This document shows positions 4,432 through 37,858 of a DNA stretch of 44,540 bases, piece after piece. A model generated the notes under the pieces. The model was given only the letters and a program-made list of their open reading frames with translations. It made no database searches and had not been told where the DNA came from. Position numbers and translations under genes: made by a program. Source of the DNA: Escherichia phage vB_EcoS-phiEc4; sequence record MZ576218. One strand, 5' to 3'. Positions within the stretch are counted from its first letter, which is position 1; each line of letters opens with the position of its first letter.

Positions 4432-4776
4432 TCATTTGCATTTCTCGTCGTATGTTTGTTGTAACTGCGACAGACGATTACCGGCTGTCATCTCGTCCAT
4501 AGAAGGCCCGGCGCCCGTGTCCATAAAGAACAGCGGAACAATCAGGAATGCGCCTGTAACACCGAGTACAACGTTAGTACCTATTTGCTTATTAACACGG
4601 TGCGTAGCGTTGGCTTGAGCTTGTTTTGTCGCGGCGATTCTCGATAGTAACTGATTACATGTTGCCGTTGTATCCCCCGCCTGATAAACCTGTAAAGCTG
4701 GGTCTGGCAACGACCTTACGCAACCACTCAAACAAACGGCTACAACACCTGCTACTGCTAATTTAATATATTTCAT
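4432..4776 (-). CDS. lipoprotein with C-terminal hydrophobic segment (superinfection-exclusion candidate)
   Basis: 114 aa; signal peptide with lipobox LSGC (MKYIKLAVAGVVAVCLSGC); own promoter upstream; antisense to structural genes. Confidence 0.6.
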   Translation of the reverse strand: MKYIKLAVAGVVAVCLSGCVRSLPDPALQVYQAGDTTATCNQLLSRIAATKQAQANATHRVNKQIGTNVVLGVTGAFLIVPLFFMDTGAGPSMDEMTAGNRLSQLQQTYDEKCK

Positions 4777-4874
4777 AGTTCACCATTACCTGTATCAATG
4801 TCACCGATACCACTACAAGCCCAAATAAACATCGCCACATCAACTGCAATTACTACTGAAATAACGACTAACAT
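4773..4874 (-). CDS. 33-aa hydrophobic micro-protein (MLVVISVVIAVDVAMFIWACSGIGDIDTGNGEL)
   Basis: not in ORF track (<60 aa); strong RBS GAGGAGG 5 nt upstream of ATG; stop overlaps start of lipoprotein gene (ATGA coupling). Confidence 0.35.
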   Translation of the reverse strand: MLVVISVVIAVDVAMFIWACSGIGDIDTGNGEL

Positions 4875-4901
4875 GACGGCCTCCTCGGTTCGATAGAATG
4901 A

Positions 4902-4930
4902 ATAGTACCCTATTATATTGGGGTGTGCAA
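4902..4930 (-). promoter_or_regulatory. sigma70-like promoter P_A copy 1 (TTGCAC-17-TACTAT) with AATAG-N4-CTATT palindrome
   Basis: reverse complement reads TTGCACACCCCAATATAATAGGGTACTAT; 29-bp block recurs at 14137..14165, 37896..37924, 39119..39147. Confidence 0.6.
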
Positions 4931-4982
4931 ACTATTTATTTACGTATTCCAGTTATTCCACCGAATTGTAAATGTTGGAATA

Positions 4983-4998
4983 AACTATTCGAATAGTT
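4983..4998. repeat. 16-bp perfect palindrome AACTATTCGAATAGTT overlapping -35 of P_C1
   Basis: self-complementary as read; half-sites CTATT/AATAG are those of the promoter palindrome family but in opposite arrangement. Confidence 0.5.
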
Positions 4999-5025
4999 GA
5001 CTTTTCACTAAAAATATGATAAGCT
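4997..5025 (+). promoter_or_regulatory. promoter P_C copy 1 (TTGACT-17-TGaTAAGCT, extended -10)
   Basis: same -35, 17-bp spacing and TGn-TAAGCT as 37587..37615. Confidence 0.55.
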
Positions 5026-5031
5026 CCACCT

Positions 5032-5234
5032 GAGCTTGTGAAGTATGAACAAGCGACCGCGGCGCGGGCAGGTAACGGAGCGGGACGTAAGTCCTGAGTG
5101 TAGTTACGCTGACGCGTTCGGAAGGGCCATACTCTATTGCTTGTGTAAAAAGTAACAGGTTTACTTAGATTACGCCGTTTCTATGTTTAAATGATAAGGA
5201 CTAGCGCCCTGCTTTAAGGCAGGGCTTTACTTAT
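5032..5234 (+). ncRNA. promoter-proximal structured RNA element, copy 1 (candidate antitermination leader or sRNA)
   Basis: ~105-nt core homologous to 37621..37725 with compensatory changes in two helices; ends at terminator-like hairpin 5206..5234. Confidence 0.5.
5206..5234 (+). terminator. hairpin GCCCTGC-TTTAAG-GCAGGGC followed by TTTACTTAT
   Basis: 7-bp GC-rich stem and U-rich tail, 15 nt upstream of Rz start. Confidence 0.5.
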
Positions 5235-5249
5235 CGAGAAAGGGGAAAC

Positions 5250-5636
5250 ATGAATCTTAAAGCAACCGTCGTAGCAGGAGCATGTTTCATCATCCTGGCT
5301 TACACACACGGCATTTATCAGTACCGCAGCGGCTGGCACGAAGGCCGCGCTAATCTCGTTTCGCAGCAACAGCAGAAAGCACAGGCCGAGTTAGCGAAGA
5401 AAACACAACGGCAGCAGCAGGATGAATCAAAGGCCGCCGCCGCTGACAACGAAGGCAAGACGAAATCAGAGGTGATCACCCGTGAAGTCGTTAAGTACAT
5501 TAAAACTCCTGGTCGCAGCGTGTGCACTTTCGACCCTGAGCGCGTGCAGCTCAAGTCCCGCGCCGTCGCAAACGCCAATTCCATCCCCGGATACGACGAT
5601 GATGCAGCCGCCGTGCAAGCTGGCACCGCCGAGTAG
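5250..5636 (+). CDS. i-spanin (Rz-like)
   Basis: 128 aa; N-terminal TM segment, Gln/Lys-rich charged periplasmic region; contains +1-frame lipoprotein ORF. Confidence 0.6.
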   Translation: MNLKATVVAGACFIILAYTHGIYQYRSGWHEGRANLVSQQQQKAQAELAKKTQRQQQDESKAAAADNEGKTKSEVITREVVKYIKTPGRSVCTFDPERVQLKSRAVANANSIPGYDDDAAAVQAGTAE

Positions 5637-5745
5637 CGACGCTGACGAGGATTTAGCTATCGACGTTCAGAACGCTGAATGCGTACGGCAGCTGCGGCTG
5701 AAAGTGTTCATGTTGCAGGATTACGTGAGGAATATTCTGGAATAG
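5482..5745 (+). CDS. o-spanin (Rz1-like lipoprotein), overlapped architecture
   Basis: 87 aa in +1 frame relative to Rz; signal peptide with lipobox LSAC; Pro-rich mature region. Confidence 0.6.
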   Translation: MKSLSTLKLLVAACALSTLSACSSSPAPSQTPIPSPDTTMMQPPCKLAPPSSDADEDLAIDVQNAECVRQLRLKVFMLQDYVRNILE

Positions 5746-5827
5746 TTGCCTTGCATGTTGGAATAATTTATTCTTGACATGTAAATCCGGGTGGCCCGGG
5801 TTCCAACGTCCAGGGGACATACTGACT

Positions 5828-6532
5828 ATGAATCGTTTTTTACGTTATCCGTTCCAGGAAGAAGCTGGGGCAGAAGATAAAGCTGGTGGCGGTGACGCGC
5901 CGAAAATGTTCACCGCTGAAGAAGTTCAGGCGCTGATTGAGAAAGAAGTTGCCGGGCTTAAGGCTAATCAGGAAGCATTGTTGGCGGAGAAGAAAGAAGC
6001 CGCTCGCAAAGCAAAAGAGGCCGAAGAAGAACGGCAGCGCGCGCACCAGGAGGCGTTAAAAGCCGCTGGTAAGATGGATGAGTTCGAAAAGACGATTCGT
6101 AGCCAGTATGACCCGGTGTTAGCCGAGAAAGACGGTCGCATCTCCAGAATGGCAGAGCGTATCCTCGGCAGCGAACGTAAAGCGGTGCTAGGCTCTTTCG
6201 CGGGTGACTTTATTACCCCAGAAGCAGTGGACATTCTTGCGCCGTTCGTTAAGACTGAGTTCGAAGGCGATGATGTGGTTACTAAGTTTGTTGGTGCAGA
6301 CGGTAACGTAATCACGACTGACCCGGAACAGTTCCGCAAATACTTGCGAGAACACAAAGCGTTTTCACATTTGATTAAAGCAAATGCAGCTTCCGGCGGC
6401 GGGGCTTCCGGTAGCAAAGGCGGCGGGGCCGCACCAGCGTTTAAAGACATGAGTGAAGCGGAGCGTATCGCTCTGTACGAATCGAACCCTGCCGAATTTG
6501 AACGGCAACTTAAAGCCCTGAGGAAAAAATAA
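5828..6532 (+). CDS. scaffolding protein
   Basis: track ORF 5774..6532, first ATG at 5828; coiled-coil-like charged sequence (EAL/KEA repeats), immediately upstream of major capsid gene. Confidence 0.6.
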   Translation: MNRFLRYPFQEEAGAEDKAGGGDAPKMFTAEEVQALIEKEVAGLKANQEALLAEKKEAARKAKEAEEERQRAHQEALKAAGKMDEFEKTIRSQYDPVLAEKDGRISRMAERILGSERKAVLGSFAGDFITPEAVDILAPFVKTEFEGDDVVTKFVGADGNVITTDPEQFRKYLREHKAFSHLIKANAASGGGASGSKGGGAAPAFKDMSEAERIALYESNPAEFERQLKALRKK

Positions 6533-7581
6533 TGGCAATTACTACTATCGGCGACATCGTAACTGGTAAAGAATCGGTAATCCTGTCCTACATGACAGAG
6601 GACCCGGTAGAGAAAACCGCGTTCTTCCAGTCCGGTATCCTTACCTCGACTCCGTATGCCGCCGCTATCGCAAACGGCCCGTCCAACAAAGCGGTCCTGC
6701 CGTACTGGAAAGCTATTGATACCTCTATCGAGCCGAACTACTCGAACGACGTATATCAGGACGTCGCCACCCCGCGTAACGTGCAAACCGGTGAGATGGA
6801 TGTTCGCGTAGCTTACCTGAACGAAGGTTTTGGTCAGGCTGACCTGACGGTAGAACTGACCAGCCAGAATCCGCTGCAATCCGTGGCTTCCCGTCTGGAT
6901 AACTTCTGGCAGCGTCAGGCACAACGCCGTCTTATTGCTACCGCGCTCGGTCTGTACAATGATAACGTAGCGGCTACCGATGCGTACCACGAGCAGAACG
7001 ACATGGTTATTGACGTGTCCGCTACTCTGGGCTTCGACTCCGGCGCGTTCATCGATGCTACCCAGACTATGGGCGATGCGCTGATGGGTAACGGTGGTGA
7101 AGTGCTTGGCGCTATCGCGATGCACAGCTTCGTTTATGCGCAGGCGCGTAAGCAGCAGCTTATCGACTTCATTCGCGACGCTGACAACAACACCATGTTC
7201 GCCACCTACCAGGGCTATCGTGTGATTGTTGACGACAGCATGACCGTAGTCGGAACTGGCAACAGCCGTAAGTTCATCTCCATCATCTTCGGCAACGGTG
7301 CTATCGGTTACGGTGAAGGTTCTCCGTCCAACCCGCTGGAATACGAGCGCGAAGCGTCCCGCGGCAACGGCGGCGGCGTTGAAACCCTGTGGACCCGTAA
7401 GACCTGGTTACTACATCCGTTTGGTTACAGCTTCACCAGTGCAGTAATCACTGGCAACGGCACCGAGACTACCCCGCGCTCTGCTTCCTGGCAGGACCTG
7501 GCGAACGCCTCCAACTGGAACCGTGTGGTTGACCGCAAGCACGTACCGATTGCCTTCCTGGTAACTGGTGTCGGTGCTTAA
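6532..7581 (+). CDS. major capsid protein
   Basis: 349 aa after scaffold; followed by strong terminator; position and size typical of HK97-fold capsid protein. Confidence 0.8.
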   Translation: MAITTIGDIVTGKESVILSYMTEDPVEKTAFFQSGILTSTPYAAAIANGPSNKAVLPYWKAIDTSIEPNYSNDVYQDVATPRNVQTGEMDVRVAYLNEGFGQADLTVELTSQNPLQSVASRLDNFWQRQAQRRLIATALGLYNDNVAATDAYHEQNDMVIDVSATLGFDSGAFIDATQTMGDALMGNGGEVLGAIAMHSFVYAQARKQQLIDFIRDADNNTMFATYQGYRVIVDDSMTVVGTGNSRKFISIIFGNGAIGYGEGSPSNPLEYEREASRGNGGGVETLWTRKTWLLHPFGYSFTSAVITGNGTETTPRSASWQDLANASNWNRVVDRKHVPIAFLVTGVGA

Positions 7582-7597
7582 GGTTAAGCTATAATCG

Positions 7598-7625
7598 AGA
7601 GGGACTTCGGTCCCTCTTTTCATTT
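7598..7625 (+). terminator. rho-independent terminator after capsid gene
   Basis: 8-bp stem AGAGGGAC/GTCCCTCT with TTCG tetraloop followed by TTTCATTT. Confidence 0.75.
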
Positions 7626-7642
7626 ACTAAGAGGATTCCTAA

Positions 7643-8020: not shown

Positions 8021-8200
8021 ATGGCAGATAATTATGTAATCCGCGAAAAGTACACCCACGTTGATATTGTAGACGGTCAGGTGATGCCTGTTCGCGGTGT
8101 GGTAGAAGCGGATGAACTGGTTGCGACTCAACCGGACAACGAAGAAGCGCACAACAACGGCGGTGGTGCTAAGCGTCGTCGCCGTAAATCAGAGGAATAA
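8021..8200 (+). CDS. 59-aa protein with basic C-terminus (GAKRRRRKSEE)
   Basis: not in ORF track; RBS AGGAAAGG 3 nt upstream of ATG; fills gap between decoration and adaptor genes. Confidence 0.4.
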   Translation: MADNYVIREKYTHVDIVDGQVMPVRGVVEADELVATQPDNEEAHNNGGGAKRRRRKSEE

Positions 8201-8203
8201 TTT

Positions 8204-8716
8204 ATGCCGCTAATCGTGGAAGACGGGTCGATAGTACCTAACGCCGACAGTTACATTAGTCTGGCTGACGCCCGCGCGTTAGCGGCTAATTACGGTCTTG
8301 AGTTACCCTCAGACGATACTGCCGCAGAGGTGGCACTGCGCAACGGCGCTACTTATGTCGGGCTTGCAGAACCGCAGATGTGCGGCCGCCGTGTGTCCGC
8401 CGAGCAGTCCCTGGCGTACCCACGTACGGGAACAACACTAAACGGCTTCACCGTAGCTGATAATGTTATCCCACCGCAGTTAATCCGGGCGCAGGTAATC
8501 GCCGCTGTTACGTATGGAGCGGGCACTGATGTTCGGGCTAACTCCGATGGACGTTCCGTGCAGACCGAGCGTGTAGAGGGTGCGGTAACAGTTACCTACT
8601 TCAACAACGGCAACAGCGGGGCCACAACCGCGATTACCGCCGCTGACGACGCCTTACGCCCGTTACTGTGTGGTGGTCTTAACAACGGCTTCTCATTTAA
8701 TGTGTACCGGGGTTAA
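8204..8716 (+). CDS. head-tail adaptor / connector protein
   Basis: 170 aa, first gene of neck block after capsid; assignment by position. Confidence 0.45.
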   Translation: MPLIVEDGSIVPNADSYISLADARALAANYGLELPSDDTAAEVALRNGATYVGLAEPQMCGRRVSAEQSLAYPRTGTTLNGFTVADNVIPPQLIRAQVIAAVTYGAGTDVRANSDGRSVQTERVEGAVTVTYFNNGNSGATTAITAADDALRPLLCGGLNNGFSFNVYRG

Positions 8717-14165: not shown

Positions 14166-14272
14166 GTAGTGTGCTAGAATAATTTTGCGCCTAGTGTCGC
14201 ACACGAAAAGCGGGTGGTTCCCGTCTGGCGCATTTCCTTTAACCAGTAACCTCTTAACCAAAGGATTAAAGA

Positions 14273-34262: not shown

Positions 34263-34478
34263 ATGCAACCATCCGAACTAGGCATCCGTGTAGAGCAACG
34301 CCGTAAAGAACTCGGCATCTCCCAGCGCCGTCTGGCTGTCCTGGCCGGTGTCTCCCAGGGCGCAATTAACCAGCTGGCTCTCGGTGTAACTCAGGACGTC
34401 CGCCCGGCAACGTTGTTTAAACTGGCGGAAGTGCTGGAAGTAGACGCTAAGTGGCTGGCGTTCGGTGAAGGGGCTTGA
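34263..34478 (+). CDS. XRE-family HTH transcriptional regulator (Cro/CI-like)
   Basis: 71 aa; helix-turn-helix GISQRRLAVLAGVSQGAINQL; RBS AAGGAG; divergent from replication-module promoter. Confidence 0.7.
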   Translation: MQPSELGIRVEQRRKELGISQRRLAVLAGVSQGAINQLALGVTQDVRPATLFKLAEVLEVDAKWLAFGEGA

Positions 34479-37023: not shown

Positions 37024-37314
37024 TTATCTTTTAGCCAGACATTCCATCAAATGTGCGTACTTACGATAATAATCTGCGACAATCTCATCACCGAAATACT
37101 GATAAACGTAGGATAGGTGGTCGGAGACATCGATGGAAGCCGACATTGTGCTGAGTCTTCTTAGACTAATCGACTGCAATTCTTCTGTAACGCAAAACGG
37201 CAAATATGAGTCCAGTTTACAGGAAACGTTAAAACACAACGCATACTCACCTTGCACTAAATAGACCATATAAGCACTGTCATTTTCTTTATCGTGGAAA
37301 ATTACACCTTTCAT
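37024..37314 (-). CDS. hypothetical protein
   Basis: 96 aa; ATGA overlap with upstream HTH gene. Confidence 0.45.
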   Translation of the reverse strand: MKGVIFHDKENDSAYMVYLVQGEYALCFNVSCKLDSYLPFCVTEELQSISLRRLSTMSASIDVSDHLSYVYQYFGDEIVADYYRKYAHLMECLAKR

Positions 37315-37481
37315 TTCACGTTCTCCTTAATCCACGCTTCAACTTTATTACGGTCAAATGTTCCTGGTAAACGGCGCCCCATTACTTTAACGCTGCAATC
37401 AGGAAACTTTCCACTCTTAATCCAGTTATTGATTGTCTGGCGGGTGACGCCGATTAATTCTGCAACTTCATTGATAGTCAT
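37311..37481 (-). CDS. AlpA/excisionase-type HTH DNA-binding protein
   Basis: track ORF 37311..37571; likely start ATG 37481 with RBS AGGAGA; motif TINEVAELIGVTRQTINNWIK. Confidence 0.55.
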   Translation of the reverse strand: MTINEVAELIGVTRQTINNWIKSGKFPDCSVKVMGRRLPGTFDRNKVEAWIKENVK

Positions 37482-37510
37482 CTCGCGCTCTCCTGTGTAA
37501 TATGTATCGA

Positions 37511-37539
37511 AGTATAAGGCGGTAACTTTGTAAAAGCAA
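37511..37539 (-). promoter_or_regulatory. sigma70-like promoter (TTGCTT-17-TATACT) for minus-strand operon
   Basis: read on reverse complement; TSS about 23 nt upstream of ATG 37481. Confidence 0.5.
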
Positions 37540-37586
37540 CCAAAACACCACGCAAAGTTACTAAAATACAAAAGATGCTACTGGTA

Positions 37587-37615
37587 TTGACTTTTACTTG
37601 AAAATATGCTAAGCT
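37587..37615 (+). promoter_or_regulatory. promoter P_C copy 2 (TTGACT-17-TGcTAAGCT, extended -10)
   Basis: same architecture as 4997..5025. Confidence 0.55.
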
Positions 37616-37620
37616 TCACT

Positions 37621-37858
37621 GAGCTTGTGAGATATCGCAAGCGACCGCGGAGCGGCAGGGAACGCAACGCGTGCCATTAGGCACTTGAGTGTAGTTCCGC
37701 TGACGCTTTCGGAAGGGTCAAAGTCTATTGTTAATCCCGCCTAAATATCCAAGTCACGGATAATTAAAAGTTTCTATAGTTGCCGTGAGCAAGGTAGAGA
37801 GTACTTCACTCCGCTGGGGTGGGCTAACGCCCACCCACTGCGTTGCGTACTCTTTTAA
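37621..37858 (+). ncRNA. promoter-proximal structured RNA element, copy 2
   Basis: core 37621..37725 homologous to 5032..5135 with compensatory substitutions; 3' region has GC-rich hairpin GGGTGGGC-TAAC-GCCCACCC nested in AGAGTAC/GTACTCT helix followed by TTTT. Confidence 0.5.

Follow-up and report, generated by a model that had tools for sequence, protein, structure and literature searches.

Candidate control region with a conserved leader hairpin ahead of the scaffold and capsid genes of Escherichia phage vB_EcoS-phiEc4

The sequence of Escherichia phage vB_EcoS-phiEc4 (MZ576218; 44,540 nucleotides (nt), analyzed in full and referred to below as the window) contains an 82-bp gap that separates the o-spanin stop codon, TAG at 5743-5745, from the ATG of the head scaffolding protein gene (5828). 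Over positions 4700-6600 the window is 98-99.5% identical to E. coli Kagunavirus phages, which are tailed phages of the Guernseyvirinae. Comparison with relatives makes it very probable that the scaffold and capsid genes have a promoter in this gap, followed by a transcribed hairpin (HP1) and overlapped by an array of short hexamers that is probably bound by a regulator (Table 1). A preliminary description of the same DNA had proposed an activator-dependent late promoter built on a TTGACA hexamer, and its individual claims are taken up below where the evidence bears on them. The hairpin behind the capsid gene likely marks the end of a two-gene scaffold-capsid unit, and the annotations of phages fBC-Eco01 and Shemara place a terminator at the matching position.

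Table 1. Features of the spanin-scaffold-capsid region (window coordinates)
Feature	Position	Strand	Remarks
Site-1 hexamer array	4945..4991	.	TATTCC at 4945 and 4954; palindrome GGAATA-AAC-TATTC at 4977-4990
Site-1 promoter (earlier label P_C1)	4997..5025	+	TTGACT (4997-5002), 17 nt, TGa-TAAGCT (5020-5025)
i-spanin gene	5250..5636		
o-spanin gene	ends 5745	+	
Two direct GGAATA	5729..5745	+	At 5729 and 5739, 10 bp apart; in the last o-spanin codons and stop, just upstream of the -35
-35 hexamer of the proposed scaffold-capsid promoter	5746..5751	+	TTGCCT
Second motif copy	5755..5773	.	Palindrome GGAATA-ATT-TATTC (5760-5773)
-10 hexamer	5769..5774	+	TATTCT, 17 nt after the -35
TTGACA	5774..5779	+	Overlaps the last -10 base and the stretch before the predicted start
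HP1 RNA hairpin	5784..5802	+	Dyad plus three more pairs; 8 bp, loop UGG, about -11 kcal/mol
HP2 small hairpin	5808..5818	+	GUCC-AGG-GGAC, 4 bp; Shine-Dalgarno AGGGGA in loop and 3' arm
Head scaffolding protein gene	5828..6532	+	PHROG 206, E 3.6e-54
Major head (capsid) protein gene	6532..7581	+	PHROG 247, E 1.3e-117
Terminator-like hairpin	7597..7628	+	T-rich tail; directly after the capsid gene

Promoter hexamers and the leader hairpin

Scaffold-upstream regions were taken from 58 viral contigs and several GenBank phages and supplemented by a pattern scan; the promoter alignment comprised 20 distinct upstream sequences and the hairpin covariation analysis 21. At four-fold synonymous sites of the scaffold gene the window is 41-54% identical to other lineages. 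Neutral positions are therefore near saturation, and conservation of the control region reflects selection. In the promoter alignment, the only invariant bases 5' of the hairpin are TTG (5746-5748), the T, A, T and final T of the -10 hexamer (T5769, A5770, T5771 and T5774), and T5775. The invariant positions are the best-conserved ones of the sigma-70 -35 and -10 elements, set 17 nt apart, and the 5' half of the spacer between them is free to vary (TGCATGT, TAGTAAG, TCTCCTG, TCTGATG).

With a simple sigma-70 matrix, the highest score within 90 nt 5' of the hairpin fell at the TTGCCT/TATTCT position in 10 of 10 lineages; when both strands of the window were scored (445,120 combinations of position and spacer), this site ranked 37th. 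The hexamers are TTGCCT/TATTCT in Kagunavirus, Jerseyvirus and the Cornellvirus-like phages, TTGCAT/TATTCT in loci L049 and L056, TTGCAA/TATTCT in L071, TTGCAT/TATATT in L057, TTGCCC/TATATT (17-nt spacer) in Serratia phage Tsm2, TTGTTA/TATATT in L054, and TTGCGA-16-TGaTAATAT in Dhillonvirus. The spacer is 17 nt in nine lineages and 16 nt in Dhillonvirus, and the distance from the end of the -10 to the CGGG core of the hairpin is 12-14 nt (17 nt in Dhillonvirus). A distant relative, Shewanella phage 3/49, has TTGCTT-17-TATAAT directly upstream of its scaffold gene, without such a hairpin.

The gene upstream of the scaffold gene lies on the opposite strand in the Cornellvirus-like loci (L046, Shemara) and in the Dhillonvirus phage SSL-2009a, and in L046 it has its own divergent promoter. 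Thus, in these phages the scaffold gene needs a promoter within the stretch. The window very probably has one at the corresponding position, with transcription predicted to start at about 5781 (G5781; range 5779-5783), 7 nt after the -10. The earlier placement of a promoter ahead of the scaffold and capsid genes is borne out to this extent, although the conserved promoter sits 28 bp upstream of TTGACA. In the Cornellvirus-like loci L046 (2400-2455) and L049, TTGACAGTGT after the -10 mirrors the -35 of the divergent promoter (ACAGTGTCAA) about 46 bp upstream, forming an inverted repeat around the scaffold promoter.

The GC-rich dyad CCGGGTGGCCCGGG is present at 5787-5800, as had been reported, and forms the upper part of HP1. 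This hairpin was found in every sampled Guernseyvirinae lineage and in Dhillonvirus, one per genome and always ahead of the scaffold gene, with stabilities of -9.6 to -13.6 kcal/mol across eight lineages. In the HP1 columns 95.4% of cells form standard pairs, versus 21-56% when the partners are slid by 1-3 columns, and the covariation score of 0.278 (at most 0.051 in the slid controls) was reached by none of 500 shuffles. The lower pairs each occur as three to five pair types (AU/CG/GC/GU/UG; AU/GC/UA/UG; CG/GC/AU), a second alignment agrees, and one pair passes through an A-U to G·U to G-C series within Dhillonvirus. Since G·U pairs are A·C mismatches on the other strand, the structure belongs to the plus-strand RNA, and transcription of the dyad as an RNA hairpin implies a start upstream of 5784. 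The end of the -10 lies 9-11 nt from the base of the HP1 stem in Guernseyvirinae, so that a start at the predicted distance would leave 2-4 unpaired nt before HP1.

The top four pairs of HP1 and the GG of its loop are unchanged, with no G-C/C-G flips, in at least ten lineages including Dhillonvirus, whose scaffold protein is 30% identical to that of the window. Such a fixed top (CGGG-NGG-CCCG) suggests that its sequence is recognized by some factor as well. Downstream of the stem, a U tract is missing in every lineage (UUCCAACG in the window; GUCCUAAAG, CUACUAACG), and HP1 was not reported by the terminator scan. A search of Rfam with positions 4850-5900 at E up to 10 gave no relevant match, and neither the hairpin nor the hexamer sequences were mentioned in the searched literature. 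In Escherichia phage SSL-2009a (locus L083, 1684-1767), which belongs to another siphophage genus, a promoter, a CGGG-UGG-CCCG hairpin and a ribosome-binding site follow one another ahead of the scaffold gene.

For HP2, which lies in a conserved ribosome-binding region, one compensatory change was observed, from U-A to A-U in the L054 lineage. The minimum-energy fold of the wider region pairs 5749-5763 with 5801-5815; in this candidate 64.5% of cells pair and 130 of 500 shuffles reach its covariation, and it was rejected. Such a pairing would hide the ribosome-binding site in a read-through RNA.

Hexamer arrays and neighboring repeats

The gapped word ATGTTGGAATAA-N3-ATTC has exactly two occurrences in the window, at 4972 and 5755, and the longer ATGTTGGAATAANNNATTC is exact at 4972-4990 and 5755-5773 and found nowhere else in the window with up to three mismatches. 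The motif previously described at both sites is thus real as these two exact copies, although its second start had been set at 5753, 2 nt too early. Two exact copies of a 16-base gapped word are weakly surprising alone, as two or more matches arose in 2 of 100 shuffles. The features are judged real because the copies are conserved in relatives, because they fall in the only two clusters of at least three GGAATA/TATTCC hexamers in the window (4945-4977 and 5729-5760), and because the dyad covaries.

The first motif copy lies just upstream of the site-1 -35. The hexamers and their spacing at site 1 are kept in Kagunavirus, Jerseyvirus and the Cornellvirus-like phages, and the flanks and the central triplet (AAC, CTT, AAT) vary. 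At the scaffold promoter, GAATAGTTGCCTT (5740-5752) matches GAATAGTTGACTT (4991-5003) of site 1, AGGAATAG persists in Cornellvirus-like loci lacking a spanin gene at this place, and locus L071 carries a similar hexamer array. The palindrome at 5760-5773 takes up the 3' half of the spacer and extends over most of the -10. Among the loci examined, a palindrome at the scaffold promoter is mostly accompanied by a further copy upstream, and lineages lacking it there carry none. Palindrome lineages mostly carry the weaker TATTCT, and lineages without it mostly TATATT or TAATAT, which suggests that the -10 is shared with a palindrome half-site. The GGAATA-N3-TATTC arrays are probably a regulator-binding site, and binding may cause repression, as the palindrome overlaps the -10, or activation, with hexamers at about -36 to -52.

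A further idea, that the first motif copy supplies the -10 of another promoter, was dropped: lineages differ in its last base (G, A or C), and no TTG stands 17 nt upstream. None of the consensus sequences compared, those of the ARG box, Fis, the RcsB box, CpxR and DnaA, fits the GGAATA-N3-TATTC spacing. An RcsB-like core is fitted only by GGAATATTCT (5729-5738), which is coding and not kept in the Cornellvirus-like loci. A further sequence, GGAATAATTTATGC (8194-8207), which Bas75 and Jerseyvirus also have, differs by one mismatch from the scaffold-promoter palindrome. It overlaps the start of the head-tail adaptor gene (ATG at 8204) together with its ribosome-binding site, and the likeness may be coincidence.

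The site-1 promoter ranks 11th of the 445,120 combinations, is conserved as T(T/A/G)GACT-17-TGnTA(A/C)(G/C)CT and leads into a non-coding leader of about 200 nt followed by the spanin genes. In the annotation of fBC-Eco01 it is predicted as a host promoter, and no promoter is predicted in the spanin-scaffold gap (PMC9825357). The leader is one of two copies of a candidate non-coding RNA (5026-5230 and 37613-37850, plus strand), both under the same promoter TTGACT-17-TGnTAAGCT (4997-5025 and 37587-37615). Their first ~115 nt are about 85% identical, with CGCTGACGCnTTCGGAAGGG common to both, and the first copy ends shortly before the spanin genes, at a terminator hairpin (5206-5225). Diverged versions stand upstream of the spanin genes in Jerseyvirus and Cornellvirus; the candidate RNA has no Rfam match, and relatives annotate a 36-aa open reading frame within it.

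A different palindrome, AATAG-N4-CTATT, has eight copies in the window (4901, 14136, 27504, 31264, 34175, 34219, 37912 and 39135), all in promoter-like sites; it corresponds to the repeated 'phage promoter' motif described for fBC-Eco01. The minus-strand copies carry TTGACA-17-TATAGT, and the -35 hexamers of the plus-strand copies (4901 and 14136) are poor. A gene for an XRE-type helix-turn-helix protein (34263-34478), a plausible binder, adjoins two of the copies. The sequence GAATAGTTGCCTTGCATGTTGG (5740-5761) is 73% identical to GAATAGTACCCTATTATATTGG (4900-4921) and looks like a decayed copy of this repeated promoter motif that now supplies the scaffold -35. Between the 14136 copy and the tail assembly chaperone gene, close to both, lies a match to int-alpA RNA (14184-14248, plus strand, 36.6 bits). 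No other Rfam match in the window exceeds the gathering score; the phage carrying it is virulent and has no integrase.

Among the neighboring genes, the o-spanin open reading frame can be read from a GTG at 5482 (5482-5745, plus strand) with a lipoprotein-type signal (…LSTLSAC…). Several relatives annotate just its last 47 codons, a version that would be without the lipobox. A minus-strand reading frame at 5653-5820 (55 aa) was rejected as a gene, because 1-base indels between lineages exclude coding constraint.

Proposed mechanism and alternative explanations

The best explanation of the whole, to which we give a probability of roughly 0.55, is that the gap is the control region of a compact scaffold-capsid operon, combining a promoter, a 5' hairpin and a regulator array. 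From the computed features, their conservation and the covariation we infer the following course of events. Host sigma-70 RNA polymerase would use TTGCCT, the 17-nt spacer and TATTCT to start at about 5781, and the transcript would open with 2-4 unpaired bases followed by the GC-rich HP1. HP2 would then present the ribosome-binding site, with the scaffold gene, the capsid gene and the terminator at 7597-7628 downstream. The 5'-terminal HP1 would most likely shield a heavily used late mRNA from 5'-end-dependent decay in the manner of ompA, and slower decay of this kind would suit genes needed in hundreds of copies per virion. A regulator acting at the four-hexamer arrays would probably tune or time both promoters. 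An extension of this scheme, in which the HP1 top is an RNA operator and the hexamer arrays are operators of an undescribed regulator, so that both are specific recognition sites, appears unlikely at present. If true, the HP1 top could serve, for example, feedback of the scaffold or capsid protein on translation, or a factor acting on the transcribing polymerase, and the arrays could couple lysis-gene and head-gene expression.

Several points weigh against this reading. The promoter matches the consensus at 8 of 12 positions and both hexamers are imperfect; a stock promoter scanner did not report it, because its threshold is 9 of 12. The base frequencies of our scoring matrix were approximated from published promoter compilations. 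The searched literature gives no mapped transcription start for any Guernseyvirinae phage, and a Kagunavirus RNA-seq paper reports time classes only (PMC12645636). Scaffold mRNA in Kagunavirus and Jerseyvirus could also arise by read-through from the spanin promoter, with no terminator separating the spanin and scaffold genes. The 72-nt leader folds with an energy no better than that of shuffles (z +0.9), the support for HP1 being covariation and not folding energy, and the stabilizing role of HP1 is an analogy only. No hexamer-binding protein was identified by co-occurrence: the AlpA-like gene (37311-37571) does not appear to track the hexamers, being absent both in Tsm2, which has no motif, and in Shemara, which keeps it. 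The AlpA-like protein occurs in 442 phage records. The XRE-type gene is present in all phages compared, and its product more plausibly goes with the AATAG-N4-CTATT palindromes instead.

The explanation offered earlier, that TTGACA is the -35 of an activator-dependent late promoter in which the dyad replaces the -10 and transcription starts at 5805-5815, appears very improbable. TTGACA does stand at 5774-5779 without a -10 (CGGGTT is found 17 nt downstream), it is a perfect -35 hexamer, a shared motif precedes TTGAC at both sites (4997 and 5774), and TGACA is kept in four lineages (Kagunavirus, Cornellvirus-like, L049/L056 and L071). However, the hexamer is lost in Jerseyvirus, L054, L057, Tsm2 and Dhillonvirus with the remaining architecture kept; TTGTTA replaces it in Jerseyvirus, and TTTAGC, TTTTTA and TTCGTA in other lineages. 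It therefore cannot be retained as a -35: no -10-like hexamer occurs 15-19 nt downstream, and the best TTGACA-based site ranks only 2085th of 445,120 in the approximate sigma-70 scoring. A MerR-like arrangement with a long spacer was also tried, and no TAnnnT lies 19-22 nt downstream. The shared motif may indeed be a regulator site, but TTGAC stands 6 nt farther from it at the first site, and this 6-bp difference argues against a common activator geometry. We know of no activator-dependent sigma-70 promoter class that lacks a -10, so a consensus -35 without a -10-like element, in a core that is not conserved, does not resemble an activator-dependent late promoter. Covariation with G·U pairs marks the dyad as a transcribed RNA helix, which removes it as a stand-in for the -10; together with the conserved hexamers, it moves the predicted start from 5805-5815 to about 5781. 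The same dyad could in principle be an intrinsic terminator or attenuator of the spanin transcripts, or a palindromic operator at the DNA level, as its GC-rich 8-bp stem follows directly after the spanin genes and its core is strongly conserved. This we regard as the most remote of the alternatives: a terminator would lack its U tract in every lineage, went unreported by the scan and would have nothing to terminate where the upstream gene is divergent, whereas for either role the G·U wobbles, read on the other strand or as part of a DNA palindrome, would become A·C mismatches, the outer pairs show covariation and the loop lacks symmetry.

More serious, if still improbable, is the possibility that the gap contains no promoter, the scaffold gene being reached by read-through from the site-1 promoter (4997-5025) and HP1 being a processing or stability element in a longer transcript. 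HP1 would form in such an RNA too, the scan found no terminator between the o-spanin and scaffold genes, and the promoter match is just 8 of 12. Set against this are the invariance of TTG and TAT..T at a fixed 17-nt spacing despite saturated synonymous sites, the need of the divergent-gene lineages for a promoter at exactly the matching place, and the absence of covariation in the pairing of 5749-5763 with 5801-5815, which would be able to act on a long RNA. A somewhat better, though doubtful, case can be made for HP1 as mainly a sequence-specific RNA operator, serving translational self-repression by free scaffold protein or a polymerase or ribosome factor, and not as a passive 5' cap; this is compatible with the promoter model. 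Its top pairs and loop GG are fixed in at least ten lineages while the three lower pairs flip freely, and it is single-copy and always tied to the scaffold gene. On the other side, no binding protein was identified, no Rfam family matches, GC-rich stem tops may persist for stability alone, and the autoregulation reported for the P22 scaffold is a precedent without homology.

Comparison with known systems

Phages of the genera Kagunavirus and Jerseyvirus are isolated in many places for use in therapy and biocontrol. The present analysis positions a likely scaffold-capsid promoter and leader, with a predicted start at about 5781, and corrects a misleading TTGACA. The cassette of promoter, hairpin and ribosome-binding site is conserved in two phage groups or more and is a compact candidate part where engineered phages call for strong late expression. 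The HP1 top and the GGAATA arrays offer defined targets for regulator discovery in a group in which most small genes are unassigned.

The proposed promoter resembles the ordinary sigma-70 promoters of phages without an RNA polymerase of their own in its TTGnnn, 17-nt spacer and TAnnnT and in its position ahead of an operon ending in an intrinsic terminator. In contrast to them, its hexamers are imperfect, a palindrome lies over the spacer and -10, and the start is predicted. The repeated 'phage promoter' of the Kagunavirus phage fBC-Eco01, tgAATAGTa-ccTATTat-T (PMC9825357), has GAATAG/CTATT half-sites in common with the scaffold-promoter palindrome. The two nevertheless differ, GGAATA-N3-TATTC being 3 bp shorter than AATAG-N4-CTATT. 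Like the late promoters of P2/P4 (Ogr-Delta), Mu (C/Mor), lambda (Q) and T4 (gp55/gp33), the region precedes late structural genes and has recurring upstream hexamers, which could bind a regulator. In the P2 Ogr, Mu C/Mor, lambda Q and T4 late promoters a -10-like element is retained and no good -35 is present. The TTGACA candidate shows the reverse, and no cognate activator was found for it.

For the leader, the closest parallel is the hairpin in the 5' untranslated region of E. coli ompA, which reportedly stabilizes its mRNA, a finding attributed to Emory, Bouvet and Belasco in 1992. In both cases a stable hairpin lies a few nt from the 5' end (predicted here) of a highly expressed mRNA and is followed by a ribosome-binding site. 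The ompA effect is structure-based, whereas in the present hairpin two phage groups share an unvarying stem top and loop GG. The scaffolding protein of P22 is reported to regulate its own synthesis, a finding attributed to King et al. in 1978 and Wyckoff and Casjens in 1985. The likeness is that scaffold expression may be post-transcriptionally controlled, which would give a leader RNA element a role; the two systems show no sequence relationship. The proposed promoter itself is of the ordinary sigma-70 type, and a modest novelty lies in the cross-genus hairpin and the hexamer arrays.

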